64,000 nt of DNA from Thermus sp. (GTDB lineage Bacteria; Deinococcota; Deinococci; Deinococcales; Thermaceae), in NCBI RefSeq assembly GCF_037444525.1, contig NZ_JBBIMD010000002.1:117-64116 (forward strand). The letters run 5' to 3'. How positions within the stretch are numbered: the first letter of the stretch is position 1; each line of letters opens with the position of its first letter. This document shows, one piece after another, positions 48,950-64,000 of the stretch. The translations under genes were made by a program, and so were the position numbers. The notes beneath the pieces are model-generated. The model did not search any database and had not been told where the DNA came from. It worked only from the letters and a program-made list of their open reading frames with translations.

Positions 48950-49073
48950 AAGCCCCAATCGTCCGAAGGATATCACAGCCCTTAGGGAAGGCCGGCGCCC
49001 TAGGGGGATGACCCCCTGCTTTCACAAAGTTTTAACACCCTCTCCGCTATACTCCATTCTAGGGGGTGGTCGA

Positions 49074-49556
49074 ATGAGAAACCTAGGCCGGCTTTGGGTC
49101 CTCCTCGCCTTCCTCTTTACCACGGCCTTGGCCCAGCTGGGGCTGGACCTCAAAGGGTTTAAGGTCCAGGTGAAGGAGGGCAAGGAGGTCTTGGTGGAGG
49201 CCCTGGAGGTAGCCCCTGGGGATGTGGTGGCCTGGCGCCTCCTGGCGGAGAACAAGGGGAAAGACCCCCTGCGCCAGGTGGCCCTGGTCATCCCCATCCC
49301 GAAGGAAACGGTGTTCCTCGAGGCGCCGGTTCTCCTTTTCAAGGGAGTCCAAATCCGCCCGGAGTTCAGCTTTGACGGGGGCAAGACCTTCGGCTTCCCC
49401 CCCCTGAAAAAGCGGGTCCGGGTGGTGGAAGGGGGAAAGGAGGTGGAAAAGGAGGTAGAAGTTAGGCCCGAAGAGTACACCCATGTACGCTACCTGATAC
49501 CCGAGCTCAAGCCCGGCGAACAGGTGGAGGTCCTGGTCAGGACCAAGGTCCGCTAG
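49074..49556 (+). CDS. Small secreted protein made of one C-terminally incomplete DUF11-like domain
   Basis: Signal peptide ending TALA; PGDVVAWRLLAENKG...IPIPKET; ends LKPGEQVEVLVRTKVR. Confidence 0.8.
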   Translation: MRNLGRLWVLLAFLFTTALAQLGLDLKGFKVQVKEGKEVLVEALEVAPGDVVAWRLLAENKGKDPLRQVALVIPIPKETVFLEAPVLLFKGVQIRPEFSFDGGKTFGFPPLKKRVRVVEGGKEVEKEVEVRPEEYTHVRYLIPELKPGEQVEVLVRTKVR

Positions 49557-49571
49557 CAGAAGGAGGTACGG

Positions 49572-52274
49572 ATGAAAAGACTAACGTTTTTAGGTCTGGG
49601 CCTTATGGCCCTCCTGCTGGGGGTGGCCCTGGCCATGACCCCCGCAGGCACCAGCATCACCAACCAAGCTTCGGCCAGCTACATTGACTCCGCTGGCCAG
49701 CCCCGGACCACCACCTCCAACCAGGTGGTCACGGTGGTCCAGCAGGTCTTCAGCTTCACCATCACCCCAAACGGCAGCGAAGCAAGCCCCGGCCAAACCA
49801 AGTCCGCCCTGCCCGGGGGCCAGGTGCTCTTCAACTACCGGGTGGAGAACACCGGTAACGGCACGGACACCATCAACCTGGCCACGGCCCAGGGCACCTC
49901 GGACGACTTTGACCTGCTAAACGTCCTCATCTATCGGGACAGCAACTGCAACGGCACCGTGGACGCGGGGGAGCCCCAGGTGGCCTCTGTCACCCTGGGC
50001 ATGGGCCAGCAGGCCTGCGTGGTGGTGGTGGCCACCCTCCCCACCACGGCCACCGGTGGCCAGTACGGCAACCTGAACCTTACAGGCACCAGCCAGGGAA
50101 ACCCCAGCGTCACCGACACGGATAACTGGGCCCGCGCGGTGACCACCACGGCGGCCGCCCTCACCGCCACCAAGTCCGCCACCCCCACCAGCGTGGCCCC
50201 GGGTGGCACCATCACCTTTACCATCTCGGGGGCCAACGTGGGTGGAAGCGCAGCCTACGGGGTGAGCATCTCTAGTCTGGGCACGGGCATCCTCATCTCC
50301 GACACCATCCCCACCGGGCTTACCGTGAGCGCCATGCCCACGGGCACCGCGGGGGCAGGGACGGTGAGCTTTGTCTACACCCCGAACGGCACCACCTGGC
50401 AGACCCTCTCCCCGTCCAACCTCCCCCTCACGGGGAACGGCACCGTGGCCATAGGGATGTTCATTGAGGGAAGCGGGGCCTTCTTCCCCCAAGGGGCGGG
50501 GTACACCTTCAGCTTCCAGGCCGCGGTGCCCACCAGCGCCCCAGCCAGCACCACCTATGCCAACACCGCCACGGTGCGCTTTGACGCCAACGGGGACGGA
50601 TATAGCGACGACCCCGGGGAGACGGTCTCCTCCAACACCACCACCAATACCGTAGCCACCAGCTACAACGTGGCCGTGGGGCCCTACGGTTACCCCGAGG
50701 GGGGTGCCACGGGCACCTACTCCGTGGGCGGCTACACCGTGACCCGCTCCGGGGATAGCCAGACCATCGCCAGCGCCAATAGCGGCACCGCGGTCATCTT
50801 CCGCCACACCCTGAAGAACACCGGGAACGCCCCAGACAGCTTCACCCTGGCCTATAGCGGCGCCCCCTCGGGCTGGGCTTGCCAGCTTGTGGCCGACGAC
50901 CTCACCACGCCCATCTCTGGCCCCGTGGGCCCGGTGGCGGCGGGGGCTAGCTACGACTTCGCCCTCAAGTGCCAGATCCCCGCAAGCGACACCGGGGGCC
51001 CCGTGAATCTCACGGTGACCGCCACCAGCGTGGGGGACACCGCTAAGAGCGACACCACCACGGACACCGTGCAGAGCGTGGCCCTGGGCTACGCGGTGGA
51101 CCTGGCGGCCCACGGCTACGCGGGGGATGGCAACGCCGCCAACGACAACCCCGCGGCCCAAAGCGCCAACCCTGGCCAGACGGTCTACTTCCCCTTGGAC
51201 ATCTACAACGCCGGGGCCAACACGGATAGCTACAACCTCACCGCAAGCCTCCCCAGCGGCTGGAGCGTCCTCTTCTACCCCGACGCGGACTGCGACGGGG
51301 CCATGGACGCCCCCACCCCCGCGCCCTTGAGCAACACCGGGCCCATCAACCCCGGGGCCACCAAGTGCTACATCGCCGCGGTGAGCGTGCCCGCGGGGGC
51401 TGCGCCTGGGAGCAACCCCGTGAGCTTCACCGCCACCAGCGCCACCCTGGGCACGGTTTCCGACACCGTCACCACCCAGGTGAACGTGAACACCCTGGCC
51501 CAGGTGCTCCTGGACCCCGACCGCAACGGCACCGTGACCAGCCCCGGGACCATCCAGTACACCCACACCCTCCACAACAACTCCAACGCCCCCGCCCACT
51601 GCGACATCTCGGCCAGCGGCGGAAGCCACGGCTGGACCTACCAGCTCTCCACGGACGGCAGCACCTGGTACGGGGCCCTGGCGGACGTCTACGCCGCCCC
51701 CAACGGCGGCACCCAGACCATCTACGTGCGGGTCCTGGTGCCGGCGGGCCAGGCCATCGGCACGGTGGACGTGAACACCCTCACGGCCCAGTGCGACGTC
51801 ACCACCGGCACACCCGACAACACCTACGAGGCCACGGACACCGCCACGGAGACCACCACCATCGTGGGCGGGGAGCTCAGGCTCACCAAGAGCGCGGTGA
51901 GCTACGTGGGCACCTCCTCCACCGTGCGCTCCACGGACGGCAGCCGGGCCTACCCCGGGGACGTCATACAGTACTCCATCGTGGCCGAGAACATCGGCAC
52001 CGGGAACCTGACCAATGTCAAGGTCTCCGACCCCGTCCCCGCCTACACCACCTTCCTCGACGTCTCCGCCACGGCCACGGGCTTTAGCGGCACCTTCACC
52101 GTCCTCTACTCCACGGACGGCACCACCTGGAGCACCACGGCGCCTTCCAGCGTGGGCGCCGGCCAGTCCGTGTACGTGGGCGTGGACACCAACGGGGACA
52201 GCACCATCGACAACAACGACGTGATGCCGCCTGCGGCCAAGATCACCGTCACCCTTAAGGTGCAGGTGCAGTAA
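49572..52274 (+). CDS. Secreted Thr/Ser-rich DUF11-repeat protein, 900 aa (putative major filament subunit)
   Basis: Signal peptide; N-terminal TPAGTSITNQA...SNQV; repeated xNTGN-DT/S motifs; Dx[DN]xDG loops; C-terminal LTK...SDPVP...LKVQVQ; AGGAGG RBS. Confidence 0.85.
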   Translation: MKRLTFLGLGLMALLLGVALAMTPAGTSITNQASASYIDSAGQPRTTTSNQVVTVVQQVFSFTITPNGSEASPGQTKSALPGGQVLFNYRVENTGNGTDTINLATAQGTSDDFDLLNVLIYRDSNCNGTVDAGEPQVASVTLGMGQQACVVVVATLPTTATGGQYGNLNLTGTSQGNPSVTDTDNWARAVTTTAAALTATKSATPTSVAPGGTITFTISGANVGGSAAYGVSISSLGTGILISDTIPTGLTVSAMPTGTAGAGTVSFVYTPNGTTWQTLSPSNLPLTGNGTVAIGMFIEGSGAFFPQGAGYTFSFQAAVPTSAPASTTYANTATVRFDANGDGYSDDPGETVSSNTTTNTVATSYNVAVGPYGYPEGGATGTYSVGGYTVTRSGDSQTIASANSGTAVIFRHTLKNTGNAPDSFTLAYSGAPSGWACQLVADDLTTPISGPVGPVAAGASYDFALKCQIPASDTGGPVNLTVTATSVGDTAKSDTTTDTVQSVALGYAVDLAAHGYAGDGNAANDNPAAQSANPGQTVYFPLDIYNAGANTDSYNLTASLPSGWSVLFYPDADCDGAMDAPTPAPLSNTGPINPGATKCYIAAVSVPAGAAPGSNPVSFTATSATLGTVSDTVTTQVNVNTLAQVLLDPDRNGTVTSPGTIQYTHTLHNNSNAPAHCDISASGGSHGWTYQLSTDGSTWYGALADVYAAPNGGTQTIYVRVLVPAGQAIGTVDVNTLTAQCDVTTGTPDNTYEATDTATETTTIVGGELRLTKSAVSYVGTSSTVRSTDGSRAYPGDVIQYSIVAENIGTGNLTNVKVSDPVPAYTTFLDVSATATGFSGTFTVLYSTDGTTWSTTAPSSVGAGQSVYVGVDTNGDSTIDNNDVMPPAAKITVTLKVQVQ

Positions 52275-52277
52275 GCC

Positions 52278-54902
52278 ATGCGCGCCTTTGCCCTCCTCCC
52301 CCTCCTAGGCCTGGTGCTGGCCATGACCCCTGCGGGAACGGTCATCCGCAACCAGGCCCAGGGGTGGGTGGGGGGCGGGGTCTACCTTTCCAACCCCGTG
52401 GAGACCGTGGTCCAGGCCCTGTGCATGCCCCTCCTCTCCCCAGACGGCACCCAAGCCACACCCGGCCAGCGGGCCACGGTCCTCCCGGGGGGCTTCGCCT
52501 ACCTGCCCTACCGCTTGCAAAACGCCGGAAACGCCCCCTTTACCTTCACCCTGAGCGTGGCCCTGTCGGGGGATTTCACCCCAGCCATGCGGCTCCTACT
52601 GGATAGGAACGGCAACGGTCTCCCCGACCCCGGGGAAGGCGAAGCGGCCTCCCTAACCCTCGCCCCCGGGGAAGGGGTGGACCTGGTCCTCGAGGTCCAG
52701 GCACCCCCTGGGGCCTCGGGGACGACCCTCGTCTCCCCCGTGGCCACCTGCCCCGGGGGGGGTGAGGACGGGGAGAACTGGGCGGCGGTGGAGGTGGCCC
52801 AAGCCGCCCTCTCCCTCCTCAAAACCGTGGCCCCGGGCCGGGTCCTCCCCGGCGAGGAGGCCACCTTTACCCTGGAAGTCAGGAACCTAAGCCCCGCGGC
52901 GGTCCCGGTGAGGGTGGAGGACCTCCTGGACCTCCCGGGCCTGGCCTACATCCCCGGCTCCGCCTCGTCCACCCAGGGCACCCTGGAATACTACGATGGA
53001 GCCACCTGGCGCCTCACAGAGCCCCCCACCGTCTTAGGGTTAGCCCTAAGGTTGGACCTCCCCCCTGGCGGCAGCGCCAGGCTGGCCTTCCGGGTCCGGG
53101 CCCTGGAGGGCGCCCCTCCTGGGGTGCGCACCAACCGGGCTGTGGCCACGGGCGGGGGGGCCCGGGCGGAGGGGCAGGCTACCCTGGAGATCCTTCCCCT
53201 CTACCGCCATCACCTGGGCCCCGGGGGGAACCCCAAGGCCTTGCCGGGTGGGGAAGGAAGCGCAGACGACGAGCAAAGGGCACGCACCCTCCAGGGGCAA
53301 CCCTACTGCTTCCCCCACACCCTCCTCAACGAAGGCACGGCGGAGGACCGCTACCGCATGGAGGCCACGGGCCTGCCCCCAGGGGTGGGCCTCACCCTGA
53401 GGCAAAACGGCCTCCCCCTGCAGGAGCCCATCCCCTTGGGGCCAGGGGAAAGCCTGGGCTTTGAGGCCTGCCTCCTCCCCCAGGAGGCGGGGACCTTCAG
53501 CCTGGAGCTAAGGGCCCTGAGCCTGGAAAGCGGCACCCTAAACCGCACCCGGGACCTCCTGGAGGTGGTGCCCCAGGGGGCCCTGGCCCTGGTCAAGGAG
53601 GCCGACCCCCCCTCGGGGTCCACGGTACGGCCAGGGAACGTGATCACCTACACCCTCCGCATCCAAAACGCCTACGCTCCCCTCCCCCAAGCCACCATAG
53701 AAGACCCCTTGCCGGCCGGGGTGGAGTTCCTGGAGGCCCCAGGCGGCACCTATGACCCCAACACCCGCACCGTCCGCTTCCTCCTGGACCCACTCCCCTT
53801 GGGGGAAACCGCCCTCACGGTGCGGGTACGGGTGAAGGAGGTCCCCGACGACACCCTCCTGCAAAACCGCTTCACCTTAAGGAGCGGGCCCACCCCGAAC
53901 CCCATCCCCTCCAACCCCGTGGAGCACCCGGTCTTTGCCACCCACCTCCTCCTGAAGAAGAGCGTGGCCCCGGAGGTGGTCCGCCTGGGGGAGGTGCTGG
54001 AGTACCGCCTCGAGGTGACCAATCCCTCCTCGGCTCCCCTCACCGTGCGCCTGCTGGACACTCCCGACCCCGCCCTCCGCTACCTCCCGGGCTCCGCCCG
54101 CGTGAAACCGGACTGCCAGGGGGAAGGGGTGGCCCAGGAGCCCAGGGTGGAAGGGGGCGCCCTGGTGTTTGAGGGGCTTAGCCTGCCCGGGAAGGGCCGC
54201 CTCTGCCTGGTCTACCGGATGCGCCTGGTGCAACCCGGGGGCGAAACCCTTCGGAACGTGGCCCAGGCCTTTGGCCTCTCCGCCCAGGGGGCCGCGGTGG
54301 CCAGCGCTCAGGTACAGGCCCTGGCCCGCACCTCAAACCCCCCGGAGGAAAAGGCCCTCCTGGTGGGCCGGGTCTACCTGGACCTGGACGAGGACGGGCG
54401 CTACACCCCCGGGCAGGACCTCCCCCTGAAAGGGGCCCGCCTCCTCCTGGCCAAGGGCTGGCAGGTCCTCACGGACGGGGGCGGGCGCTACGCCTTCCGG
54501 GACCTCCGGCCCGGCCCCTACCAGGTGATGCTGGACCCCCTCTCCGCCCCCTTCCCGCCCCTTCCCCATCCCGAAGCCCTAGGGGAGGGGTACCGCCGGG
54601 GGGTCCAGGTCTTTGGCCTCACCCAGGTGGACTTTCCCCTCAAGGCCCCCAAGGGCACGGTCACCGTGGAACGGAGCACCGAGCTCCGCTTTGGGCCCCT
54701 TTACCTAAAGAAGCGCCTGGTGCGGGCAGGAGGGGAAACCTGGGTCCACCTCCTCTTGCGAGCCCAAGCCCCCCTGCCCGAGTTTTCCCTCAGGGACGGC
54801 GAGGAGGTCTTTAGCGTGGAGGTTTTGGAAGGCGAACGGGAGCTCACCCTTCCCTACCGGGGCACGTTCACCGACCCCGAGGTGCGCTGGAGGTACCCAT
54901 GA
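52278..54902 (+). CDS. Secreted DUF11-repeat protein with SdrD-B-like C-terminal domain, 874 aa
   Basis: Signal peptide; TPAGTVIRNQA...SNPV; three LxK...Y/FTLxxxN repeats; GRVYLDLDEDG...TDGGGRYAFRDLRPGPY. Confidence 0.85.
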   Translation: MRAFALLPLLGLVLAMTPAGTVIRNQAQGWVGGGVYLSNPVETVVQALCMPLLSPDGTQATPGQRATVLPGGFAYLPYRLQNAGNAPFTFTLSVALSGDFTPAMRLLLDRNGNGLPDPGEGEAASLTLAPGEGVDLVLEVQAPPGASGTTLVSPVATCPGGGEDGENWAAVEVAQAALSLLKTVAPGRVLPGEEATFTLEVRNLSPAAVPVRVEDLLDLPGLAYIPGSASSTQGTLEYYDGATWRLTEPPTVLGLALRLDLPPGGSARLAFRVRALEGAPPGVRTNRAVATGGGARAEGQATLEILPLYRHHLGPGGNPKALPGGEGSADDEQRARTLQGQPYCFPHTLLNEGTAEDRYRMEATGLPPGVGLTLRQNGLPLQEPIPLGPGESLGFEACLLPQEAGTFSLELRALSLESGTLNRTRDLLEVVPQGALALVKEADPPSGSTVRPGNVITYTLRIQNAYAPLPQATIEDPLPAGVEFLEAPGGTYDPNTRTVRFLLDPLPLGETALTVRVRVKEVPDDTLLQNRFTLRSGPTPNPIPSNPVEHPVFATHLLLKKSVAPEVVRLGEVLEYRLEVTNPSSAPLTVRLLDTPDPALRYLPGSARVKPDCQGEGVAQEPRVEGGALVFEGLSLPGKGRLCLVYRMRLVQPGGETLRNVAQAFGLSAQGAAVASAQVQALARTSNPPEEKALLVGRVYLDLDEDGRYTPGQDLPLKGARLLLAKGWQVLTDGGGRYAFRDLRPGPYQVMLDPLSAPFPPLPHPEALGEGYRRGVQVFGLTQVDFPLKAPKGTVTVERSTELRFGPLYLKKRLVRAGGETWVHLLLRAQAPLPEFSLRDGEEVFSVEVLEGERELTLPYRGTFTDPEVRWRYP

Positions 54903-57900
54903 GGCGGGCCTTGGCCTTACTGGCCTTGGTCACCCTGGCCCTGGGCCAGACCCTCATCAAGGCCACGGTTCCGGGCCCCGAGCTGGGCTGGTCCGTGAGG
55001 AGCCTCGAGGTCTGGCTCCTGCCCCAGGGGAAAAGCGTGAAGGTGGAGGTCTACTCCCCCGGCTTTGACCCCACGGATTACCGGAGCGCCCTAAGGGGGC
55101 AGGAGGAGCTGGGGGACGAGCGCTACGATGGAGGGCAAGGCGAGGTGGAGGCCACCTTCCACCTGGAAAGGCGGGGGGAGGTCCTGAGGGAGGCCCGCTT
55201 TGGGGTGGAGCCCCACCGCTGGGTGACCCTCTGGGAAGGGCCCCTTCCCCAGGAGCCCCATCTCCTCCTAGCCCGCATCCGGGGCCTGGGGAAAAACGCC
55301 TTCGTTTACCGCATCTCGGGGGCCAGGCTGGTCCTGGACGAGATCCCCCAACTCCTGGACGTGCGCACCGGCGGGCCCACCCTCCGCCAGCCTTCGCAAG
55401 GGGAAGGGCCGTGGGTGGAGCTCCTGCGCCTGGAGGCTCCAAACCCCTTCACCGTCCACTTCTACGACGAGGACGGCCCCGAGGAGCTGGAGTCCAGGGT
55501 GGTCTACCCTGGTTTTGAGGAAACCCGCCCCGTCTCCGGCGACCTGGCCTGGGCCCCCTACGCCTTGCGCCAGGCTGGGCTGGTGCGCTTCCTCTTCCGC
55601 CAGCCGGCCACGGCCGAACAGTACTCCAACACCATCGCCTTCCGGGCAGAAGCCTGCCTCGAGGTCCTCCCGGACCGCCTAAGGGCCATCCCCCCCGAAG
55701 AGGCGGAAGCCCTAGCGGTAGACCCCGCGGGCACCCCCCTTTCCCTCCCTATCCGCCGGGAAGGGCGTCGGTTCGTCCCCGACCTCCCCCCAGGCTACCG
55801 CCTCCTCCGGGCGGAGGGGGAAGGAGCGGTGCGGATCAGCCCAGAGGGGCGGAGCGCGGAGGTGGGCTGCCCCGGGGGCCGGGTGCGCTTCGTGGTGGAG
55901 CCCCCCACGGCCACCCTGGAGGTGGAGGCCCTCCTCCTCCTCCCAGAGCGCACCCTTCCCGCCCGCCTGCGGCTAAACGGCCAGCCCCTGGAGGGCAGCC
56001 TCCGCCTGGACCTTCCCCCCGGCCGCCACCCCCTCTCCTGGGAGGCCCCAGGGCTCCTCCCCTTAGACCCCCTGCCCCAAACGGCGGAACTCGGGCCGGG
56101 GGAGGTCCGCCGCCTCCAGCTCCGCTTCCGCCCCCAGGTGGACCTCACCCTCACCCCCCCGAGCCAAACCGTGCGGCGTGGAGAGGAGGGCAAGGTGGCC
56201 CTCCAGGCCACCACCCTTTACCCCGGCCTCCTCCCAGCCGAGCTGGCCCTGGAGCTTCCCCCCGGGCTCACTCCCCTGGGCCCCACCCGCGTCTCCGGCC
56301 CCCTGGGAGGCGGGCGGGCCTTGGCCCTAGAGGTCCCCTTCCGAACCGAGGCTGGAGGGAGCTTCCAGGTCCGGGGCACCCTGGCCCCGTACGGCCTGGA
56401 CCGCACCGGAGAGGTCCGGGTCTTCCTCCCCGCCACCCTCACCCTCAAAAAAGAGGCCCTCACCCCCGAGGTGCCCGCCGGGGGCGTGGCCCGCTTCCAG
56501 GTCACCGTGGTCAACCAGGGGGACGAGCCCGCCCGGGCCACCCTCCTGGACCGCTTCCTGGACCGGGAGGAGCGGATAGAGGTGGCCCTGGGGCCCAGGG
56601 AGGGTCGGAGCCACACCCTGGAGTTCCCCGTGCCCGAAGGGGCCCAAGGGGTCCTGGTGAACCGGGCGGAGCTGGGGGAGCTCAGGGCCGAGGCCAGCGT
56701 GCGGGTTCTCCGGCCGGAGGCCCTCCTCGCCCGGGAAACCCCCCACCGGGCCTACCTGCCGGGGGAGGTGGCGGAGGTGCGCCTCCGGGTGAGAAACCCC
56801 GGGGAAGCCCCCTTGCGCTACCAGCTTTCCGACAGATGCCCAGACGGCTTCACCCCCCTTTCGGAGCCCCGCTTTGAAGGGGTGCTGGCCCCCGGGGAAG
56901 AGCGGGTCCACACCTACCGCCTTAAGGTGGAGTTCGGCCCCGAGACGGAAGGGGTCTGCCAGGCGGAGCTTGCCGGGAACGCCGGCAGGCGCCAAGCGGA
57001 AACCCCCATCGCCCGCAAGCTCCTCAGGCTCAGCAAGGTGGCCGAGCCCGCCCGAATCCTGGAAGGGGGCGAGGGGCGCTTTCTCCTCCGGGTGGAAAAC
57101 CCCACGGACCACCAGGTGGAGGTGAAGCTCCGGGAGGTGCCCGACCCCGCCCTGGGCCTCCTCCTGGAGGAGAGGATCCTAAGGCTAGGCCCTGGAGAAG
57201 TGTGGACGGGAGAAGTCCCCTTCCGCGCTCCGGCGCCCGGCCGCTACCGCAACACCCTCCAGGCCCAGGTGGGGGAAGCCATGGCCGCCTTCCCCCAGGA
57301 AGCCCTGGTGGAAAGCCTTCCCCTCTTAGTCCCAGAGCGCATCTCCACCCTAAGCCTCCGCTACGGGGTGGAAGGCCCCGCAGGAAGCCTCCTCCTGGCC
57401 CACAAGCCCCCTGAGGGGAGCGCCTACGTTCCGGGCTCCGCCCGGCTCCAGGGCCTCCCCCTGGAAGACCCCCACCTCCTCCCCGATGGCCGCCTGGCCT
57501 GGCGCCTCCCCTTCCCTGGGGGCAAGGCCGAGGGGGAGGTGACCTACCAGGTGCGCCACCAGACCGCCCTCTCCCCCCTTTCCGAGCCCCACCTCACCCT
57601 GGTGGCCCTGGACCGGGAGATCCCCCTCAAAGGGCAGGTCACCCTTAAGGACTACGAGCGGGGCAAGCCCCTGGAAGGGGAGCGCCCGGGCCTCATCCGC
57701 GAGCCCAAGGATGGGGCCATCCTGGGGGAGCGGGCGAGGCTTTCCGTCCAAGCCCCCATGGGCCCCCTGGAGGTCCTCCTAAACGGCAAACCCGTGCCCA
57801 AGGAGCTCCTTGGTGAAGCCCAGTACGACGAGAAGGCCGGGGTGCAGCGCCTGGCCTACTACGGCCTTCCCCTGGCGGAGGGCAAAAACGTCCTGGAGGT

Positions 57901-60190
57901 CATCACCCCCTCGGCCTACGACCAGGTGGAGGTCTTCCGGCCGGGAGCCCCAGTGAGGGTGGTGGCCGAACCCACGCGATTCGTGGCGGATGGGCGCACC
58001 CCCCTGGAGCTTCGGCTGAAGGCGGTGGACGCCCTGGGCCTCCCCTCAGGCTTCGGCTTCCTCACCCTCGAGGCCGACCCCGAGCCCATCGCCGCGGACG
58101 CAAGCCCCCTGGAGCCCGGCTACCAGGTCCTCCTCAAGGACGGGGTGGCCGAGGTCCTCCTCAAGCCCCTCCCCGCGCCCCGGCCGGTCACCCTCCGCTA
58201 CCGCTTGGGCAACCTGGAGGGGTCCTTCCGCTCCGAGCCCCAAGGCCCCACCAGCACCCTCTGGCTGGCCCAGGCGAGCCTCACCCTGGGGTACGACGCG
58301 GTCCAAGGGGGGCTTTACCTCCAGGGCCTGGGCCGGGCCTACGGGGAGGGTCCCCTCCTCCGGGGCTCCTTCCAGGGGGCCTTGGACACCACAGGAGACC
58401 TGGCCCGCACCCCAGAGGGGAGCTTCCTCCCCCTTACCGGCAGCGGCACCGAGGCCACCCGCCCCCTCACCTCCGACGACCCCGTGGCCTTCCGCTACAC
58501 GGAAGCGGGCCTGGCCCTCTCCTACGAACGGGCCCCCCTAGGGCCCACCCTCCCCGAGGCCACCGCCTTGAGGCTTAGGGCCCTGGGGCCGGTGGAGGCC
58601 GAGGCCTTCTTGGGCCTCCTCCCCCTCGGGCGGGTGGAGGAGGAGATCACCCCCGATGGGGGCTCCAGCTACCGCCTGCGCTTCATCCCCAAGGCGGGGA
58701 GCCTGGCCCTCTACCTCCGGGAGGGGGGCCGGGAGGCCCTCCTCCAGGAGGGGCGGGACTACGTCCTGGACCGCACCACAGGGTACATCCACCTGGCCAG
58801 GCCCCTCCTCCCCCTCACCCCCGACTTCGCTCCCGTGCGGCTCCTCGCGGTCTACACCCCCGAAAGCGCCCCCAGGGAGGCCCTAGCCTATGGCCTTTCC
58901 GTGGGCTACCGGGAAGGGGCCTTCCGGGCACGCCTGGGGATCGCCTACTACGAGGGCTTTCAGTTTGGGGGCGAGGTGGGGTACGAGGCCGGGGGGAGCC
59001 GGGCCCTCCTCACCTACCGGCAAGAGGAGGGCAAACCCCCCACCTTCGGTCTCACCCTGGCCTACCGGGAAGGCGCCCTCGAGGCCCAAGGCGACCTGCG
59101 CTACGCCTATGGCAGCCCGCCCGAGGGCCGGGCGCGCCTGGCCTACGATCTTGGCCCCTGGGCCCTGGCCCTGGAACAAAGCGGCCCCAAGACCGCCCTG
59201 GCGGCCGAGGCCAAGCTCGGGGGCCCCTTCCGGGTGGGGGCTGGTGCGGGGTACGACTGGGGCCTGAAGAGCACCTTCCTCCTCGCCCGCCTGGCCTACC
59301 AGGAAGGGGAAAACCGCCTGGCCCTCTCCTACTACACCCCCGGCGAAGGAGAGCTTTCCGGGCGCTTCGGCCTGGCCCAAAACCTCTTCCTGGAAGGGGG
59401 CCTGCGCTACCGGGAAGGGGAGGTGGGGGGCAGCGTGGGGCTCAAAAGCGCCCTGGGGGGCGCCAACCTGGCCCTTTCCTACGAGCTCCCCACGGCGAGT
59501 GGGGAAGGGAACCGGGCCCGGTTGGGCCTGGAAGCCCCCCTCCCCCTGGATGAGCGCTGGAGCCTGAACGTTACCGCAGGCCTGGCCTACAAGCTGGACA
59601 CGGCGGAAGGGCAAAGCGCCCTGGGCCTTGGCCTGCGCTACCGCACGGAGGCGTTCGTGGCCACCCTGGCCGGGGAGTGGGCCACGGGCCGCCTCCTCTT
59701 CCGGGCTGGGGCCGCGGGAGCCCCTGCCGAGGACCAGGCCTTGGCCCTGGACCTCACCCTGGAGGCCCTCCCCACGCCTAAGCTCGGTTTCAGCGTCTCC
59801 TACGCCCTCTGGGCCGAAGGCTTCACCCTCCTCACCCACCACCTCTACAAGGAGAGCACCCTGGAAGGCCAGACCCTGGCCAACCTCCACGGCAAGGAGT
59901 TCAGCCTGCGCCCAAGCCTTCTCTACCGCTACCCCTTCCAGGACCCCGAGGGCTTGGCCCTGGAGGTGGGCCTTGGGGGCACCTACCTCTTTAGCGCCTT
60001 CGGGGTGGGGGCCAACCTCTACTATGGCCTCCTCCCCCGGCTTGGGGAGGGGGCGGGCGCCTTCAGCGTGGAGGGCACCTGGCGGGCCCTGGAGGGCTTT
60101 TGGCTCAGCCTGGGGTACACCTTCGGCGAGACCGGCTTCCGCCGTCCGGGGCCCTACCTGAGGCTGGATGTCTTCGGAGGTAGCCGATGA
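54899..60190 (+). CDS. 1763-aa secreted protein: Ig/DUF11 domains plus predicted C-terminal outer-membrane beta-barrel
   Basis: Signal peptide; LKK/LSK...VxNxG repeats; ADGRTPLELRL Big-like domain; about 600 C-terminal residues of alternating amphipathic strands rich in G/Y/F, ending YLRLDVFGGSR. Confidence 0.8.
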   Translation: MRRALALLALVTLALGQTLIKATVPGPELGWSVRSLEVWLLPQGKSVKVEVYSPGFDPTDYRSALRGQEELGDERYDGGQGEVEATFHLERRGEVLREARFGVEPHRWVTLWEGPLPQEPHLLLARIRGLGKNAFVYRISGARLVLDEIPQLLDVRTGGPTLRQPSQGEGPWVELLRLEAPNPFTVHFYDEDGPEELESRVVYPGFEETRPVSGDLAWAPYALRQAGLVRFLFRQPATAEQYSNTIAFRAEACLEVLPDRLRAIPPEEAEALAVDPAGTPLSLPIRREGRRFVPDLPPGYRLLRAEGEGAVRISPEGRSAEVGCPGGRVRFVVEPPTATLEVEALLLLPERTLPARLRLNGQPLEGSLRLDLPPGRHPLSWEAPGLLPLDPLPQTAELGPGEVRRLQLRFRPQVDLTLTPPSQTVRRGEEGKVALQATTLYPGLLPAELALELPPGLTPLGPTRVSGPLGGGRALALEVPFRTEAGGSFQVRGTLAPYGLDRTGEVRVFLPATLTLKKEALTPEVPAGGVARFQVTVVNQGDEPARATLLDRFLDREERIEVALGPREGRSHTLEFPVPEGAQGVLVNRAELGELRAEASVRVLRPEALLARETPHRAYLPGEVAEVRLRVRNPGEAPLRYQLSDRCPDGFTPLSEPRFEGVLAPGEERVHTYRLKVEFGPETEGVCQAELAGNAGRRQAETPIARKLLRLSKVAEPARILEGGEGRFLLRVENPTDHQVEVKLREVPDPALGLLLEERILRLGPGEVWTGEVPFRAPAPGRYRNTLQAQVGEAMAAFPQEALVESLPLLVPERISTLSLRYGVEGPAGSLLLAHKPPEGSAYVPGSARLQGLPLEDPHLLPDGRLAWRLPFPGGKAEGEVTYQVRHQTALSPLSEPHLTLVALDREIPLKGQVTLKDYERGKPLEGERPGLIREPKDGAILGERARLSVQAPMGPLEVLLNGKPVPKELLGEAQYDEKAGVQRLAYYGLPLAEGKNVLEVITPSAYDQVEVFRPGAPVRVVAEPTRFVADGRTPLELRLKAVDALGLPSGFGFLTLEADPEPIAADASPLEPGYQVLLKDGVAEVLLKPLPAPRPVTLRYRLGNLEGSFRSEPQGPTSTLWLAQASLTLGYDAVQGGLYLQGLGRAYGEGPLLRGSFQGALDTTGDLARTPEGSFLPLTGSGTEATRPLTSDDPVAFRYTEAGLALSYERAPLGPTLPEATALRLRALGPVEAEAFLGLLPLGRVEEEITPDGGSSYRLRFIPKAGSLALYLREGGREALLQEGRDYVLDRTTGYIHLARPLLPLTPDFAPVRLLAVYTPESAPREALAYGLSVGYREGAFRARLGIAYYEGFQFGGEVGYEAGGSRALLTYRQEEGKPPTFGLTLAYREGALEAQGDLRYAYGSPPEGRARLAYDLGPWALALEQSGPKTALAAEAKLGGPFRVGAGAGYDWGLKSTFLLARLAYQEGENRLALSYYTPGEGELSGRFGLAQNLFLEGGLRYREGEVGGSVGLKSALGGANLALSYELPTASGEGNRARLGLEAPLPLDERWSLNVTAGLAYKLDTAEGQSALGLGLRYRTEAFVATLAGEWATGRLLFRAGAAGAPAEDQALALDLTLEALPTPKLGFSVSYALWAEGFTLLTHHLYKESTLEGQTLANLHGKEFSLRPSLLYRYPFQDPEGLALEVGLGGTYLFSAFGVGANLYYGLLPRLGEGAGAFSVEGTWRALEGFWLSLGYTFGETGFRRPGPYLRLDVFGGSR

Positions 60191-63100
60191 AGCGCCTCTT
60201 GGCCCTTGTGCTTCTCCTGTTCCTAACAGCTCAAGGCCAGATAGTCCGCCCCTTCGCCCTCCGCTATTCCAACACGGTCCAGGGGGATATCCTCATCATC
60301 GGCAACACCCTGGAGGCATGTAGCAACAACGCGTTTACTACGATTACCCCAAGCCAGCCTCCATCCTGCAACCCCAATGGCAGTAAAAACAACAATCGCT
60401 ACCAAATGGCTTTCGTTGACTTTGATGGGGTATCTGGCACGTTCAACTCCAGCGCCGCCACCCTCAACCTTCCCCTTGGGAGCACCGTACTCTGGGCAGG
60501 CCTCTACTGGGGCGGCTCCCTTGACGGAAGCGTGCCCCCCCCAAACTCCAGTGCGATCGGTCAGGTACAGCTCCGTTTTGGGAGCGAAAGCTACGTTCCG
60601 GTTTCTGCAACCCAAATAGACACCGGCATCACCCACCCCGAAAACCCCTACAGCGCTTTCGCTGATGTCACAAGCTTTGTCCAGACTCACGGAGCAGGCC
60701 CGTACTGGGTGGCTAACGTGCAAGCTTCCAGGGGAACCGTTAACGGCGGCACCTTCGCCGGATGGAGCCTGGTGGTGGTTTTCCAGAATCCCAGTGAGCC
60801 GCTTCGCAACCTAAGCGTTTTTGACGGATACCTCAACCAGGCTTGCAACGCTCCACCCACCACCATCTCCGTGTCCGGCTTTTTAACCCCGAGCACAGGC
60901 CCAGTCAACGCTCGCATTGGCTTCGTTACCCAGGAAGGTGATGCAGCCACCACAGGGGACAGCTTAGCCATGAGCCGAGATTGCCTTCTCTTTAACAATC
61001 TCGCGGACGCCCAGGAACAGGAAGAAGAACAGGAAGAAGAACAGGAAGAAGAACAGGAAGAAGAAGATGATGCAGCCACCACAGGGGACAGCTTAGCCAT
61101 GAGCCGAGATGGCCTTCTCTTTAACAATCTCGCGGACGGAAGCGTGCGGCCAGCAAACAACTTCTTCAACTCCCGGGCCACGCAGCTTGGCAGTATTCTC
61201 ACAGGACGTACCCCGAACTACACCAACCTTTTGGGCTTTGACCTTGGGGTATTGGAAAACAGCACCGTCTTGCAAAACGGAGATCAACAGGCCTATTTGC
61301 GCTTCTCCACCAATGGAGACGGATATTACCCCCAGGTGCTCACCTTCGCCATCAACGTCTACCTCCCCGACCTCACCACCACCTTCACCAAAACCCAGCA
61401 GGACCTAAACGGGGGGAACCTGGAGGTGGGGGATATCCTGGAGTACACCATAAGCTTCACCAACACTGGCGGGGACGGGGCCACCAACGTGGTGGTGGTG
61501 GACCCCATCCCCCCCAGCACCCAGTACGAGCCAGGAAGCCTCCAGGTGGTGCAAAACGCCCCCTCAGCCCCCACCGGCGCCTTCACCGATGCCCCAGGGG
61601 ACGATATCGCCGAGTACGACAGCACCAACAACCGGGTGGTCTTCCGCCTGGGCACGGGAGCCAACGCCAGCCAAGGGGGGCTCATCCTTCCCACCCAGGG
61701 GGCCACAGTGAGGTTCCGGGTGAGGGTCCTCCCTTCCGCTGCCGGGCAAACCCTCACCAACACCGCCCAGGTGACCTACAACAGCCAAACCTTAGGCACG
61801 GCCTTCAGCCAAACCGCCTCCTCCAGCGCAAGCGTTGCCGTCCAGCCCGCGGCCGACCTAAGGGTTAGCAAAGTGGGGCCCGCCACCGCCCTGCCAGGGG
61901 GCCCCATAAGCTACACGGTCACCGTGGAGAACCTAGGGCCTTCCCCGGTGACGAGCGCCCCGTTCACGGACAACGTACCTAGCGGCATCGGCGGCGTGAG
62001 CTGGACCTGCACGGGAAACAGCGGGGCAAGCTGCAGCACCCCTTCCGGCACCGGAAACGCCATTGGCCTCACCCTGGACCTTCCCGCAGGAAGCGCCGCC
62101 ACCCTCAGCATCTCGGGCACCGTAAGCCCCAGCGCCGCCGGGCAGACCCTCACCAACACCGCAACCGCCTCCACCCCTGCTGGGGTAACGGAGCTGAACC
62201 CCAGCGACAACACCGCCAGCGCCTCCACCAGCGTAAGCCCGGGCTACACCCTTTCCGGTTCCGTCTACCACGACCGGGAGCCCAACGGGGCAAAAAACGG
62301 GGAGGACTGGGCCGATGGGGTTACGGTCTATGTAAAGCTCGTCCAGGGGAGCACGGCGGTGGCGGTGCAAGCCGTGGGCCCAGGAAGTGGAGGGTTCAGC
62401 TTCTTCCCCGTCCCGCCCGGAAACTACACCCTGGTCCTGGACGACAACGGAAGCACCACCGACACCACCCCCACCCCCCCTCCCGGCTGGCACTTCATCA
62501 ACCCCGGGGGCGGGCTCCTCAGCGTGACCGTAAACGGCGACCTGCCGGGCCTGGACTTCGGCCTCTTCCACGGCACCCGCCTGGTGGGCACCGTCTTCTA
62601 CGACGACGGGGAGGGTGGGGGCGCAGCGAACAACGCCCTTAGGGATGGGGGTGAGCGGGGCATAGCTGGGATCGCGGTCACCGCCACCGATGGAAGCCAG
62701 TTCCGCACCGCCCTCACCGATGGAAACGGAAGCTACCTCCTCTGGATCCCCTACGGCTGGGGCCGGGTGACCCTCTCCCACCCCCTCCGTCCTGCCACAG
62801 GCTGGAACGATGGGAGCGCGGCCACGCCGGTGGGGAGCTGGGCGGACGCCACCGCGCCCACCTCCCCCGGCGCGGTGGTGGACCTGGGGCCGGCCTCAAG
62901 CCTTCCCCCCGCCTTGGCGCGGAACTTCGGGGTGGTGCGGCCTAGCCTCCTCAGACCCCCCCAGTCCGGCCAGGCCACCAGCCCCGGAGTCTACACCCTC
63001 GCCCATACCTTCCGCCCGGGCACCCTGGGGGGCTTCACCTTGAGCCTGGCCGGCGGAATCTACACCTACCGGGTGCGGGCGGACCTGAACTGCGATGGGG

Positions 63101-63696
63101 ATTTTGACGACCCCGGGGAGGGGTTCTCGGCCTTTCCCATTGCCCTCAGCGTGAGCGCCGCCTGGCCCAGGGAAGCGGACGGCGGCCTCAAGGCCTGCCC
63201 CCTCGAGGTCCAAGCCCTTGTCCCTCCTGGGGAGCCCCCTGGGCGCACGGATGTGGCCCTCCTCCAGGGGAGCCTAGCCTGGGCGGGTAGCGGCGTGGTG
63301 GAACCCCTCACCCTCACCGACCTCCTCACCGTGACGGGGGGCGAGGTGCGCCTCAGCAAGGAGGTGCGCAACCTCACCCAAGGGGGGCCCTTCGGCAGGA
63401 GCGCCCAGGCCAGGCCCGGCGAGGTCCTGGAGTACTGCATCGCCTACCAGAACCTGGGCACCGCCCCCGTGACGAACGTGGCCTTGGCCGATCCCATCCC
63501 CTTCTTCACCGACCTGGTCCTTGGGGCCTACGGGGGTAGAGACCTCCGCTGGACCCAGGGGAGCACGGTCCAGGACCTCACCGCCGCCCAGGACAGCGAC
63601 GCCGGGCACGTGGCCGCGGGGGTGGTCTACCTCCAGGTGGGCTCCCTGAACCCCGGGGAAAGCGGAAGCCTCTGCTACCGGGTGCAGGTGCGGTAG
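60187..63696 (+). CDS. Secreted 1169-aa putative tip adhesin: variable N-domain, DUF11 repeats, SdrD-B-like domains
   Basis: Signal peptide; AT-richer N-domain; FTK/VSK...NTA repeats; LSGSVYHDREPNG and LVGTVFYDDG domains; C-terminal LSK...ADPIP...CYRVQVR. Confidence 0.85.
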   Translation: MKRLLALVLLLFLTAQGQIVRPFALRYSNTVQGDILIIGNTLEACSNNAFTTITPSQPPSCNPNGSKNNNRYQMAFVDFDGVSGTFNSSAATLNLPLGSTVLWAGLYWGGSLDGSVPPPNSSAIGQVQLRFGSESYVPVSATQIDTGITHPENPYSAFADVTSFVQTHGAGPYWVANVQASRGTVNGGTFAGWSLVVVFQNPSEPLRNLSVFDGYLNQACNAPPTTISVSGFLTPSTGPVNARIGFVTQEGDAATTGDSLAMSRDCLLFNNLADAQEQEEEQEEEQEEEQEEEDDAATTGDSLAMSRDGLLFNNLADGSVRPANNFFNSRATQLGSILTGRTPNYTNLLGFDLGVLENSTVLQNGDQQAYLRFSTNGDGYYPQVLTFAINVYLPDLTTTFTKTQQDLNGGNLEVGDILEYTISFTNTGGDGATNVVVVDPIPPSTQYEPGSLQVVQNAPSAPTGAFTDAPGDDIAEYDSTNNRVVFRLGTGANASQGGLILPTQGATVRFRVRVLPSAAGQTLTNTAQVTYNSQTLGTAFSQTASSSASVAVQPAADLRVSKVGPATALPGGPISYTVTVENLGPSPVTSAPFTDNVPSGIGGVSWTCTGNSGASCSTPSGTGNAIGLTLDLPAGSAATLSISGTVSPSAAGQTLTNTATASTPAGVTELNPSDNTASASTSVSPGYTLSGSVYHDREPNGAKNGEDWADGVTVYVKLVQGSTAVAVQAVGPGSGGFSFFPVPPGNYTLVLDDNGSTTDTTPTPPPGWHFINPGGGLLSVTVNGDLPGLDFGLFHGTRLVGTVFYDDGEGGGAANNALRDGGERGIAGIAVTATDGSQFRTALTDGNGSYLLWIPYGWGRVTLSHPLRPATGWNDGSAATPVGSWADATAPTSPGAVVDLGPASSLPPALARNFGVVRPSLLRPPQSGQATSPGVYTLAHTFRPGTLGGFTLSLAGGIYTYRVRADLNCDGDFDDPGEGFSAFPIALSVSAAWPREADGGLKACPLEVQALVPPGEPPGRTDVALLQGSLAWAGSGVVEPLTLTDLLTVTGGEVRLSKEVRNLTQGGPFGRSAQARPGEVLEYCIAYQNLGTAPVTNVALADPIPFFTDLVLGAYGGRDLRWTQGSTVQDLTAAQDSDAGHVAAGVVYLQVGSLNPGESGSLCYRVQVR
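60940..61138 (+). repeat. 70-bp direct duplication flanking a (CAGGAAGAAGAA)x4 tandem repeat
   Basis: 60940-61009 and 61069-61138 differ at one base; four 12-nt units at 61018-61065; the reading frame is kept. Confidence 0.92.
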
Positions 63697-63708
63697 AGGG
63701 CTTGGCCT

Positions 63709-63743
63709 AAGAAAAACCCCCGGGCCCTAGGGCCCGGGGTCTT
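63709..63743. terminator. Bidirectional intrinsic terminator
   Basis: 10-bp stem ccccgggccc/gggcccgggg flanked by aagaaaaa and tcttt. Confidence 0.8.
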
Positions 63744-63793
63744 TGGTGGGCGGCGTAGGACTTGAACCTACGACCTCTCGCGTGTGAGGCAAG
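63744..63793 (-). mobile_element. 3' fragment of tRNA-Val(CAC): probable attachment site of an integrated element
   Basis: Minus strand reads cttgc-ctCACac-gcgag, T-arm gtagg-TTCAAGT-cctac, gccgccc-A-CCA; no D-arm or 5' acceptor strand upstream. Confidence 0.85.
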
Positions 63794-64000
63794 CCCAGAA
63801 CCCCCGTCATCTTCCGTTTTTCCCCTTCCAGACGCGGTTTTCTCCAATAGCACTTCCTGGAATTTACTCCGATAGCCGGCCATTTCCGGGGTGATAGACC
63901 GGCTGATAAACCGGCTGGCCGTAGAGTCGTTCTAGGAAACATTGAGGAGGCCGAGGAGCCTCGAGGTGCGCCTTCATCAGGCAAGCTCAGATAGTCCCCA

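Follow-up and report, generated by a model that had tools for sequence, protein, structure and literature searches.

DUF11, or CLIPPER, is a CnaA-like domain with an intramolecular Lys–Asn isopeptide bond that is catalyzed by an Asp, the three residues being K715, D748, and N806 in the structure 9IFR (PMC12617251). Isopeptide bonds also occur between the subunits of a fiber: in the BsaA fibers of Clostridium perfringens, which belong to the TasA family, insertion of the donor is followed by an inter-chain isopeptide bond N35–K74, with E56 (10.1101/2024.11.04.621531), and in the archaeal threads (Saci_0406), N57 is bonded to the N-terminal amine (PMC9715654). The Elr WxL pilus of E. (Enterococcus) faecalis, recognized recently, is built by donor-strand exchange and comprises a tip, a polymer, and a terminator, along with a chaperone of its own (10.64898/2026.10.17.759780). 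Here, we analyze a 64,000-nucleotide (nt) stretch of Thermus DNA (the window), part of a 2.2-Mb Thermaceae genome that is 99% complete and has its best protein matches in Thermus species, and within it, a + strand operon of five genes at 49074–63696. We argue that its products of 160, 900, 874, 1763, and 1169 amino acids (aa) (P0001–P0005; Table 1) are the parts of a head-to-tail chain in which a naturally split CLIPPER domain is completed between molecules, a reading that we consider probable, at roughly 0.66. Donor and acceptor ends are present in these proteins, carry a split isopeptide triad, and are conserved together with a barrel protein.

Donor Hairpins and Truncated Acceptor Domains

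The complete repeat at residues 195–365 of P0002 runs from LTATK through ISDTIP and FSFQAAV to a closing hairpin, PASTTYANTATV...SSNTTTNTV. The mature N termini of P0002 (residues 23–58, TPAGTSITNQASASYIDSAGQPRTTTSNQVVTVVQQ) and P0003 (residues 17–47, TPAGTVIRNQAQGWVGGGVYLSNPVETVVQA) both align with this closing hairpin and the loop preceding it, each consisting of the lone final hairpin as a first-pass annotation of the window had proposed, and they have the core TPAGTxIxNQA...SN..xTVV in common. At the opposite end of the molecules, the C termini of P0001 (VRTKVR), P0002 (LKVQVQ), and P0005 (YRVQVR) stop at the strand that precedes the closing hairpin, and in the last domain of P0002 (residues 766–900), the hairpin and the triad Asn are both missing. 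The earlier observation that these three C termini end after an xVxV-type strand, with no hairpin to follow, agrees with the Pfam matches in Alcanivorax, where the last, C-terminal domain of a 987-aa protein covers positions 10–84 of the 114 positions of the DUF11 model, and the small protein covers positions 10–83. Also as proposed, the 900-aa protein has both a donor and an acceptor, in the form of its N-terminal hairpin and its truncated C-terminal domain, and the 1169-aa protein has an acceptor-type end and no donor.

All five proteins carry a type I signal peptide, with AxA-type cleavage sites and no Cys. The placement of the hairpins goes beyond chance: a search of the whole genome for the hairpin motif immediately following a hydrophobic signal sequence turned up two open reading frames (ORFs) only, each of them in the operon. 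The donor hairpin is also the best-conserved stretch of P0002, being nearly invariant among 45 orthologs that are 58–77% identical.

With a donor and an acceptor in one molecule, a flexible chain of about six domains could bend back on itself, and the P0002 hairpin would then complete its own C-terminal domain, closing a ring for stability. Such intra-chain complementation would, however, leave without partners both the donor-only proteins (P0003 and the fused giants of other phyla described below) and the acceptor-only ones (P0001 and P0005), and we regard it as highly improbable.

The Split Isopeptide Triad

The internal domains hold the full triad in one chain, as K201/D244/N331 in P0002 and K562/D595/N657 in P0005, and the three P0002 residues are all invariant among the 45 orthologs. 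The terminal domain of P0002 has K773 and D820 and no Asn in the proper place, the equivalents of the latter being N31 in the hairpin of P0002 and N25 in that of P0003. Both Lys and Asp are found in 28 of 28 P0002-type acceptors from Thermaceae, Proteobacteria, and Eisenbacteria, and the triad Asn is present in every donor hairpin, whether of the P0003 type (28/28) or the P0002 type (34/34; 62/62 together). Across all fetched loci, Asp is kept in 99 of 99 acceptor-type C-terminal domains; the Lys column is also filled in 99 of 99, but there, the selection filter itself demanded a nearby Lys.

The split triad sets P0001 apart from the other acceptors. In the P0001 family, the Asp position is occupied by Ile, Val, or Leu in all 34 members (I73 in P0001 itself), and Lys is found in 18 of the 34. 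Judging by these residues, the acceptors that would carry load keep the chemistry of a covalent lock and P0001 does not; having neither the Asp nor a conserved Lys, P0001 suggests itself as a noncovalent cap or chaperone that binds the hairpins. Between the chain-forming subunits, the division of Lys, Asp, and Asn over two ends makes a covalent lock likely. The split triad is an addition to the account given by the first-pass annotation, which omits it.

Modeled Docking of the Hairpins

The stop codon of P0001 is in frame with the start of P0002 and that of P0002 with the start of P0003. Reading the stop codon as Gly yields natural acceptor–linker–donor fusions in which the signal peptide is the linker, and we modeled two of these with AlphaFold2 (AF2), using alignments from orthologous loci with rows paired where the genes are also in frame. 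The first construct, made of P0002 758–900, Gly-Ala, and P0003 1–47, reached a mean predicted local distance difference test score (pLDDT) of 91.8 and a predicted template modeling score (pTM) of 0.86; the acceptor domain scored 97–98 and the P0003 hairpin, folded into four short strands, 93, 96, 98, and 93, with the linker at 74 and 59. The second construct, consisting of P0001, a 6-residue spacer, and P0002 1–58, had a mean pLDDT of 89.5, with 96–98 in the body of P0001; 92, 97, 96, and 91 in the P0002 hairpin; and 70, 59, and 56 in the linker. Since each construct contains one folded domain, the confident hairpin strands must pack on that domain, and the models predict that the donor hairpin fits the truncated domain. 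By setting the P0003 hairpin on the C-terminal domain of P0002 and the P0002 hairpin on P0001, they agree with the earlier assignments of the 874-aa protein as a donor-only base adaptor, which is fused to the barrel elsewhere, and of the 160-aa protein as a lone acceptor (cap or chaperone).

A hidden Markov model (HMM) of the complete internal domain matched the C-terminal domain of P0002 alone over positions 15–114 of 175 (25.3 bits) and, when the protein’s own hairpin was appended, over positions 15–170 of 175 (31.5 bits); shuffled hairpins gave 24.1 ± 1.4 bits. In Foldseek searches, both AF2 models matched CnaA-type isopeptide domains from adhesins and pilins of Gram-positive bacteria (SspB, BspA, BcpA, SpaD, and RrgB), and comparison with the CLIPPER structure 9IFR gave a TM-score of 0.67–0.70, normalized to the 123-residue target. 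The top Foldseek match of both models was TTHA1873, a 158-aa T. thermophilus protein of unknown function with structures (7wwo, 7wwn, and 7wrk) as monomer and dimer; while similar in size to P0001, it has no detectable sequence similarity to it and, not being a sequence relative, was not taken as its ortholog.

A more conventional explanation would be that the proteins are ordinary, self-contained DUF11 fibrillar adhesins encoded beside an outer-membrane protein, with no joining between chains: the hairpin would pack on its own first domain or be a sorting motif, and the last domain would be a compact seven-strand fold. Single-chain DUF11 adhesins are indeed widespread, and DUF7507 is a compact relative with seven strands (PMC12617251) that gives weak matches in P0002 and P0003; packing in cis is also compatible with the AF2 models, which cover parts of P0002. 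On the other hand, self-contained adhesins would not explain why every terminal domain has kept Lys and Asp and lacks the triad Asn, which the hairpins carry without exception, why proteins with only a donor and proteins with only an acceptor are found together across phyla, or why AF2 docked the hairpins on foreign acceptors with high confidence. Taken together, we find it improbable that the proteins act as self-contained adhesins.

Distribution and Comparative Genomics

Throughout Thermaceae, as well as in Deinococcus-type genomes, the five genes stand in the same order. Relatives that are ~30% identical are found in Acinetobacter, Alkanindiges, Alcanivorax, Polaromonas, Granulosicoccaceae, Steroidobacteraceae, and Eisenbacteria and also in metagenome-assembled genomes of Planctomycetota and Thermotogota. 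These distant relatives have the same set of parts: a truncated single domain of ~170 aa, at least one donor-plus-acceptor protein of ~900 aa, acceptor-only proteins whose heads vary, and a protein of 2000–2250 aa that starts with a signal peptide and a donor hairpin, contains both P0003-like and P0004-like modules, and has YLRxRxKFDE as its last strand, of the outer-membrane type. What Deinococcota make as P0003 and P0004, from a gene that was split, is a single fused chain in Proteobacteria, Eisenbacteria, and other phyla, and this fusion connects the donor-only adaptor with the barrel protein. The first-pass annotation had proposed a gene-neighborhood survey, and ours found the same gene set and the same logic of ends in Deinococcota and several other phyla.

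Two side observations concern the ends of the genes. The C terminus of P0003 is a near-invariant DPxVRWRYP across Deinococcota (54870–54902 in the window), with DPTASWRY or DPNAGWRY in Deinococcus-type genomes, and its stop codon overlaps the start of P0004 (ATGA); the DPxVRWRYP end may be a piece that docks to P0004 after fission of the gene. Some barrel-family ORFs, the six-frame match of this genome among them, contain one in-frame TGA, which represents the overlapping gene ends.

The numbers of P0002-like proteins vary among the relatives. In Acinetobacter and Alkanindiges (loci L035:403–8445, L043:17–8771, and L031:52–10648), two extra ~900-aa proteins are encoded upstream of the core cluster, with variant donor hairpins of their own (e.g., KAGSSITNIASGDF and SSQQIISNMAIGEY) and acceptor ends, and the same loci encode an acceptor-only protein of 900–2260 aa; the extra subunits suggest either several shaft types or an ordered multisubunit chain. 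The three or four distinct P0002-like paralogs that stand in a row in Acinetobacter hint at ordered assembly and are one argument for a fixed, short hetero-chain made of one tip, one P0002, and one adaptor-barrel, that is, a stalk in three pieces with no self-polymerization of P0002. P0002 alone is already about six domains long, and the pairs modeled with AF2 are both hetero pairs. However, the donor and acceptor of P0002 are of the same type as those predicted to fit, the core of its hairpin is common with that of P0003, and we saw nothing that would stop P0002 from joining itself; a chain of fixed length is, in our estimate, unlikely.

The barrel family is present in 200 of 301 Deinococcota genomes and the small-protein (P0001) family in 262 of the 301. 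In Thermus, the barrel and the small protein are both found in 19 genomes and neither in 11, with one 87%-complete genome having the small protein without the barrel. This joint presence and absence indicates that the operon is an accessory one that is gained or lost as a whole; it is carried by about 60% of Thermus species. Many Deinococcus-type genomes contain two to four barrel-family copies and several small-protein genes and may hold several such systems each.

The pattern in Thermus also bears on the location of the structure, which could be internal to the envelope, as a tether from the outer membrane to the peptidoglycan or S-layer or as a periplasmic scaffold, instead of an external fiber. 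An internal structure would agree with the presence of Sec signal peptides only and no evident export route for folded subunits, with an OmpA-like peptidoglycan-binding lipoprotein in the proteobacterial clusters, and with the unusual envelope of Deinococcota. Yet an operon missing in about a third of Thermus species is not a core part of the envelope, the variable head of P0005 with its lower G+C resembles an exchangeable adhesin, and related domains make the stalks of surface adhesins (PMC12617251). We give a location within the envelope a low probability.

The Putative Barrel Protein and the P0005 Head

The C-terminal ~450–650 aa of P0004 resemble an outer-membrane barrel in their repeated amphipathic strands, and the terminal strand is conserved, with the form YLRLDxFGG in Thermaceae and YLRxRxKFDE in other phyla. 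A count of amphipathic strands on P0004 gave about 20 segments, which is too crude for a barrel size; in length, the barrel-like region exceeds 12 strands severalfold. The first-pass annotation had considered the 1763-aa protein a beta-barrel acting as an usher or an anchor: the outer-membrane-type last strand and the fusion to the adaptor fit an anchor, whereas the usher role would be a conjecture.

A profile of the last 680 residues, run against 1.84 billion sequences, found 4306 representatives at 50% identity clustering with E ≤ 1e-3 and 2133 with E ≤ 1e-30. Most of them are about 2000 aa in length with the profile match at the C terminus, and at least 57 of 111 long members of the family start with a donor hairpin by a strict pattern, several more doing so by eye. 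In gammaproteobacteria, the gene of the OmpA-like peptidoglycan-binding lipoprotein adjoins the giant barrel gene on its 3′ side (L041:12356–12967 in Alcanivorax; L040:9437–10000), and the Thermus operon contains no such gene.

Pfam reported no family at E up to 1 for the head of P0005, the N-terminal 1100 aa of P0004, or the barrel region, nor did it report the autotransporter family (PF03797) for P0004 or its last 680 aa at the same limit; YadA_anchor, at chance level, and ASH, below threshold, were the only matches at E up to 1 and were discarded. Nothing useful came from searching solved structures by sequence with P0001, P0002, P0003, P0005, and the barrel-region profile.

The head of P0005 (about residues 18–395) is unclassified and 35–39% identical to its homologs in Eisenbacteria. 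Within the head, around residues 251–318 (60937–61140), lies an in-frame duplication of ~23 aa (DAATTGDSLAMSRD.LLFNNLAD) around an acidic (QEEE)x4, and the G+C content is 0.60–0.62 in 60000–62000 compared with about 0.70 for the remaining operon. The duplication and the low G+C could reflect an adhesin head that was recently exchanged or slipped, or they could be an assembly artifact.

Operon Layout and Domain Families

The five genes form one unit. The five-gene operon claimed by the first-pass annotation is found as described, with all five ORFs in place on the + strand and tightly spaced: the gaps are 15 nt (P0001/P0002) and 3 nt (P0002/P0003), and P0003/P0004 and P0004/P0005 overlap by 4 nt each. 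In a terminator scan, the only convincing terminator was the strong one at 63718–63739, which closes the operon; a scan for promoters ahead of 49074 gave no sigma-70-like site. On the 5′ side, the neighbor is a divergent ABC-transporter operon on the minus strand, ending at 48976; toward the 3′ end, ARAGORN found no tRNA gene in 63000–64000, and the contig continues only 192 bases past the end of the window.

The naming of the operon after DUF11 is apt for three of the proteins, in which DUF11 (PF01345)/TIGR01451 repeats score above the curated cutoff (30 and 53 bits in P0002, 59 and 75 bits in P0003, and 85 and 109 bits in P0005) and stand beside SdrD_B-like modules. It does not hold for P0004, which has no DUF11 match and nothing significant in Pfam/NCBIfam, and P0001 has only subthreshold DUF11 matches in this genome, its Alcanivorax homolog being matched. 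None of the five proteins has a Pfam or NCBIfam match to the TasA/camelysin family. P0002 also contains recurrent loops with paired Cys, DxNxNGxxDxGE and DADCDGAMD (residues 122–133, 50028–50063; residues 567–577, 51270–51302); they are of the calcium-binding type found in SdrD_B-like modules and strongly conserved, with residues D123, N125, C126, N127, G128, D131, G133, and E134 invariant among the orthologs.

Table 1. Genes of the operon and features within them, by position in the window
Feature	Residues	Position	Strand	Description
P0001		49074..49556	+	160 aa; signal peptide, single truncated DUF11-like domain; putative acceptor only
P0002		49572..52274	+	900 aa; about six immunoglobulin (Ig)-like domains; N-terminal donor, C-terminal acceptor
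P0002 donor hairpin	23–58	49638..49745	+	Asn31 codon 49662–49664; directly behind signal peptide (1–22)
P0002 internal complete CLIPPER/DUF11 domain	195–365	50154..50666	+	Triad K201/D244/N331; reference domain
P0002 acceptor domain	766–900	51867..52271	+	Lys773 51888–51890, Asp820 52029–52031; ends ..TLKVQVQ
P0003		52278..54902	+	874 aa; donor hairpin, internal DUF11 domains, SdrD_B-like domain, C-terminal DPxVRWRYP
P0003 donor hairpin	17–47	52326..52418	+	Asn25 codon 52350–52352
P0004		54899..60190	+	1763 aa; ~1100 aa of Ig-like modules, then barrel-like C-terminal region
P0004 barrel-like region	about 1110–1763	58226..60187	+	Ends in last strand YLRLDVF, then GGSR
P0005		60187..63696	+	1169 aa; head, complete DUF11 domains, SdrD_B-like modules, terminal acceptor
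P0005 acceptor domain	about 1050–1169	63334..63693	+	Lys1058 63358–63360, Asp1102 63490–63492; ends ..CYRVQVR
Terminator		63718..63739	both	Bidirectional, intrinsic, 9 G–C pairs; operon end

Discussion

In the assembly that we propose, the acceptor is a C-terminal domain that contains the first-strand Lys and the catalytic Asp and ends before the last two strands, and the donor is the missing two-strand hairpin with the triad Asn, exposed by cleavage of the signal peptide. The P0004 barrel would sit in the outer membrane with P0003 bound to it; the N-terminal hairpin of P0003 would insert into the C-terminal domain of P0002, and the hairpin of P0002 would enter either P0005 or a further P0002. 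The shaft would consist of at least one P0002 subunit, with P0005, having a head and an acceptor, at the tip and its N-terminal head as the distal adhesin, and the donor-only P0003 would terminate the chain and tie it to the barrel. Docking would bring Lys, Asp, and Asn together, and a spontaneous Lys–Asn isopeptide bond would then lock the joint without a sortase. P0001 would bind free hairpins reversibly, whether as a temporary cap or as a periplasmic chaperone that acts in reverse to PapD. If type 1 pili are a guide, assembly could start at the tip and end when P0003 joins. A long polymer of P0002, as opposed to a short chain, presupposes polymerization, which we infer; the fiber would presumably be extracellular, on the cell surface, and the idea that the barrel is also the conduit of export is speculation.

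Several points weigh against this assembly. The whole case is built from sequence comparison and single-chain prediction. The pairs modeled with AF2 were two hetero pairs, the P0002 acceptor with the P0003 hairpin and P0001 with the P0002 hairpin, and AF2 may favor the docked state, given that the donor was tethered to the acceptor and that complete DUF11 domains had already been seen by the program. The gain in the domain-HMM test was modest, and 1 of 100 shuffles came near it. The putative barrel of P0004 is read from just an amphipathic pattern and a conserved last strand, and the region has no structural relative (by sequence, in the PDB) or Pfam relative. Finally, the proposed assembly offers no route by which folded 900-aa subunits would cross the outer membrane.

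In its widest form, the proposal is that the operon represents an undescribed and widespread class of diderm pilus, with multidomain subunits joined by split CLIPPER domains and Lys–Asn locks; with no usher, PapD-type chaperone, sortase, or protease; with the fiber covalently tied to a giant barrel that is, perhaps, the export channel; and with P0001 as an inverse chaperone. We offer it tentatively, at slightly less than even odds. Full-text literature searches found no published description of such a system, in agreement with the first-pass annotation, to which no characterization in Thermus was known. Two leads from the literature were set aside: the haloarchaeal tafi paper, whose matching passages concern DUF1102 proteins, is not relevant as a parallel, and the D. 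radiodurans DUF11 protein DR_0685, from a proteomics paper, could not be linked to the operon. What is new here are the read-through fusion models of two donor–acceptor pairs, one of them with the small protein; the tally of the bonding residues, which the P0001 family lacks; and the fission of the adaptor/barrel gene in Deinococcota together with the pattern of presence and absence of the operon in Thermus.

If the proposal is true, fibers with covalent links are made on the surface of diderms from at least six phyla by a separate route, distinct from the chaperone-usher, type IV, type V, curli, and sortase pathways, and the split domains are a natural counterpart to engineered protein glues of the SnoopCatcher type. 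The Thermus version would then be a heat-stable and genetically approachable model of the class; its proteins suit in vitro reconstitution and cryo-EM, and orthogonal donor–acceptor pairs from a thermophile could serve protein engineering. It would also raise the questions of how folded, cross-linked Ig-like chains are delivered to the surface and what the job of the ~650-residue unclassified barrel is.

Comparison with Known Systems

With classical autotransporters (type Va), P0004 has only the order of passenger and then barrel in common, the PF03797 barrel having 12 strands. The Type V pili of Bacteroidota (Fim/Mfa) have lipoprotein precursors with a lipobox Cys and mature when a protease takes off an N-terminal strand; the signal peptides of the operon, in contrast, are of the AxA type. 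The sortase pili (SpaA, RrgB, and BcpA) are closer in that they consist of CnaA/CnaB isopeptide subunits in a covalent fiber and are Foldseek neighbors of our models; their link is made by transpeptidation, whereas that of the operon would come from completion of a fold. The first-pass annotation had seen no PapD, PapC, or sortase motifs in the proteins, and the whole genome gave the same answer: no match to sortase (PF04203), usher (PF00577), or the PapD-like chaperone (PF00345) was found, with three Gram-positive controls positive for sortase, the E. coli control for usher, and the controls for the chaperone. An LPXTG-type tail is also missing from the five proteins, whose C termini are ..VQVQ, ..VQVR, ..TKVR, ..RWRYP, and ..FGGSR.

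The Elr WxL pilus resembles the proposed fiber in using donor-strand exchange outside the chaperone-usher family, but it differs in its WxL fold, its membrane-anchored and strand-donating chaperone, its anchoring by sortase, and its restriction to Bacillota (10.64898/2026.10.17.759780). In BsaA fibers and archaeal threads, an N-terminal donor is inserted into the next subunit and a spontaneous isopeptide bond then locks it, as at the proposed joint, and the residues that such an inter-chain bond would need are in place in the operon. Those fibers, however, have unrelated folds and single-domain subunits, are found in organisms that lack an outer membrane, and come without a barrel anchor, a set of tip and adaptor, or a small acceptor protein. 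The chemistry of a divided domain is known from SnoopTag/SnoopCatcher and the RrgA Jo-In pair, in which a CnaA/CnaB-type domain is cut so that Lys and the catalytic acid lie on one piece and Asn on the other, short one, and the pieces dock and bond spontaneously (PMC6539128, PMC5333627); these pairs are man-made, whereas the split in the operon would be natural, conserved, and in the service of assembly. By domain family, the relatives are the CLIPPER/DUF11 adhesins (9IFR; PMC12617251), which have the same CnaA-like fold and Lys/Asp/Asn triad as the internal domains of the operon. In the adhesins, all strands and the triad are in one chain and stabilize a stalk made of that chain (PMC12617251); in the operon, the terminal domain is cut ahead of the last two strands, and the hairpin with the Asn is at the N terminus of a different secreted protein or of another copy.

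In the cast of its parts, the operon resembles the chaperone-usher pili (FimH-FimA-FimI, FimC, and FimD), with a candidate acceptor-only tip adhesin, donor-plus-acceptor shaft, donor-only terminator, outer-membrane barrel, and small periplasmic helper, all encoded together. There, each subunit has an incomplete Ig-like fold into which the following subunit inserts its N-terminal segment, and for the operon, AF2 with tethered constructs predicts an analog in the form of a two-strand hairpin, the donor of chaperone-usher pili being one strand. The subunits of the operon are also much different, being 900-aa multidomain proteins, and their joint is probably covalent, to judge from the residues that they hold. 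The chaperone of the chaperone-usher pili donates a strand, whereas the small helper of the operon would accept the donor. Finally, the barrel of the operon belongs to an unclassified family, has 1763 aa here and ~2000 aa elsewhere, and would itself be joined to the chain.

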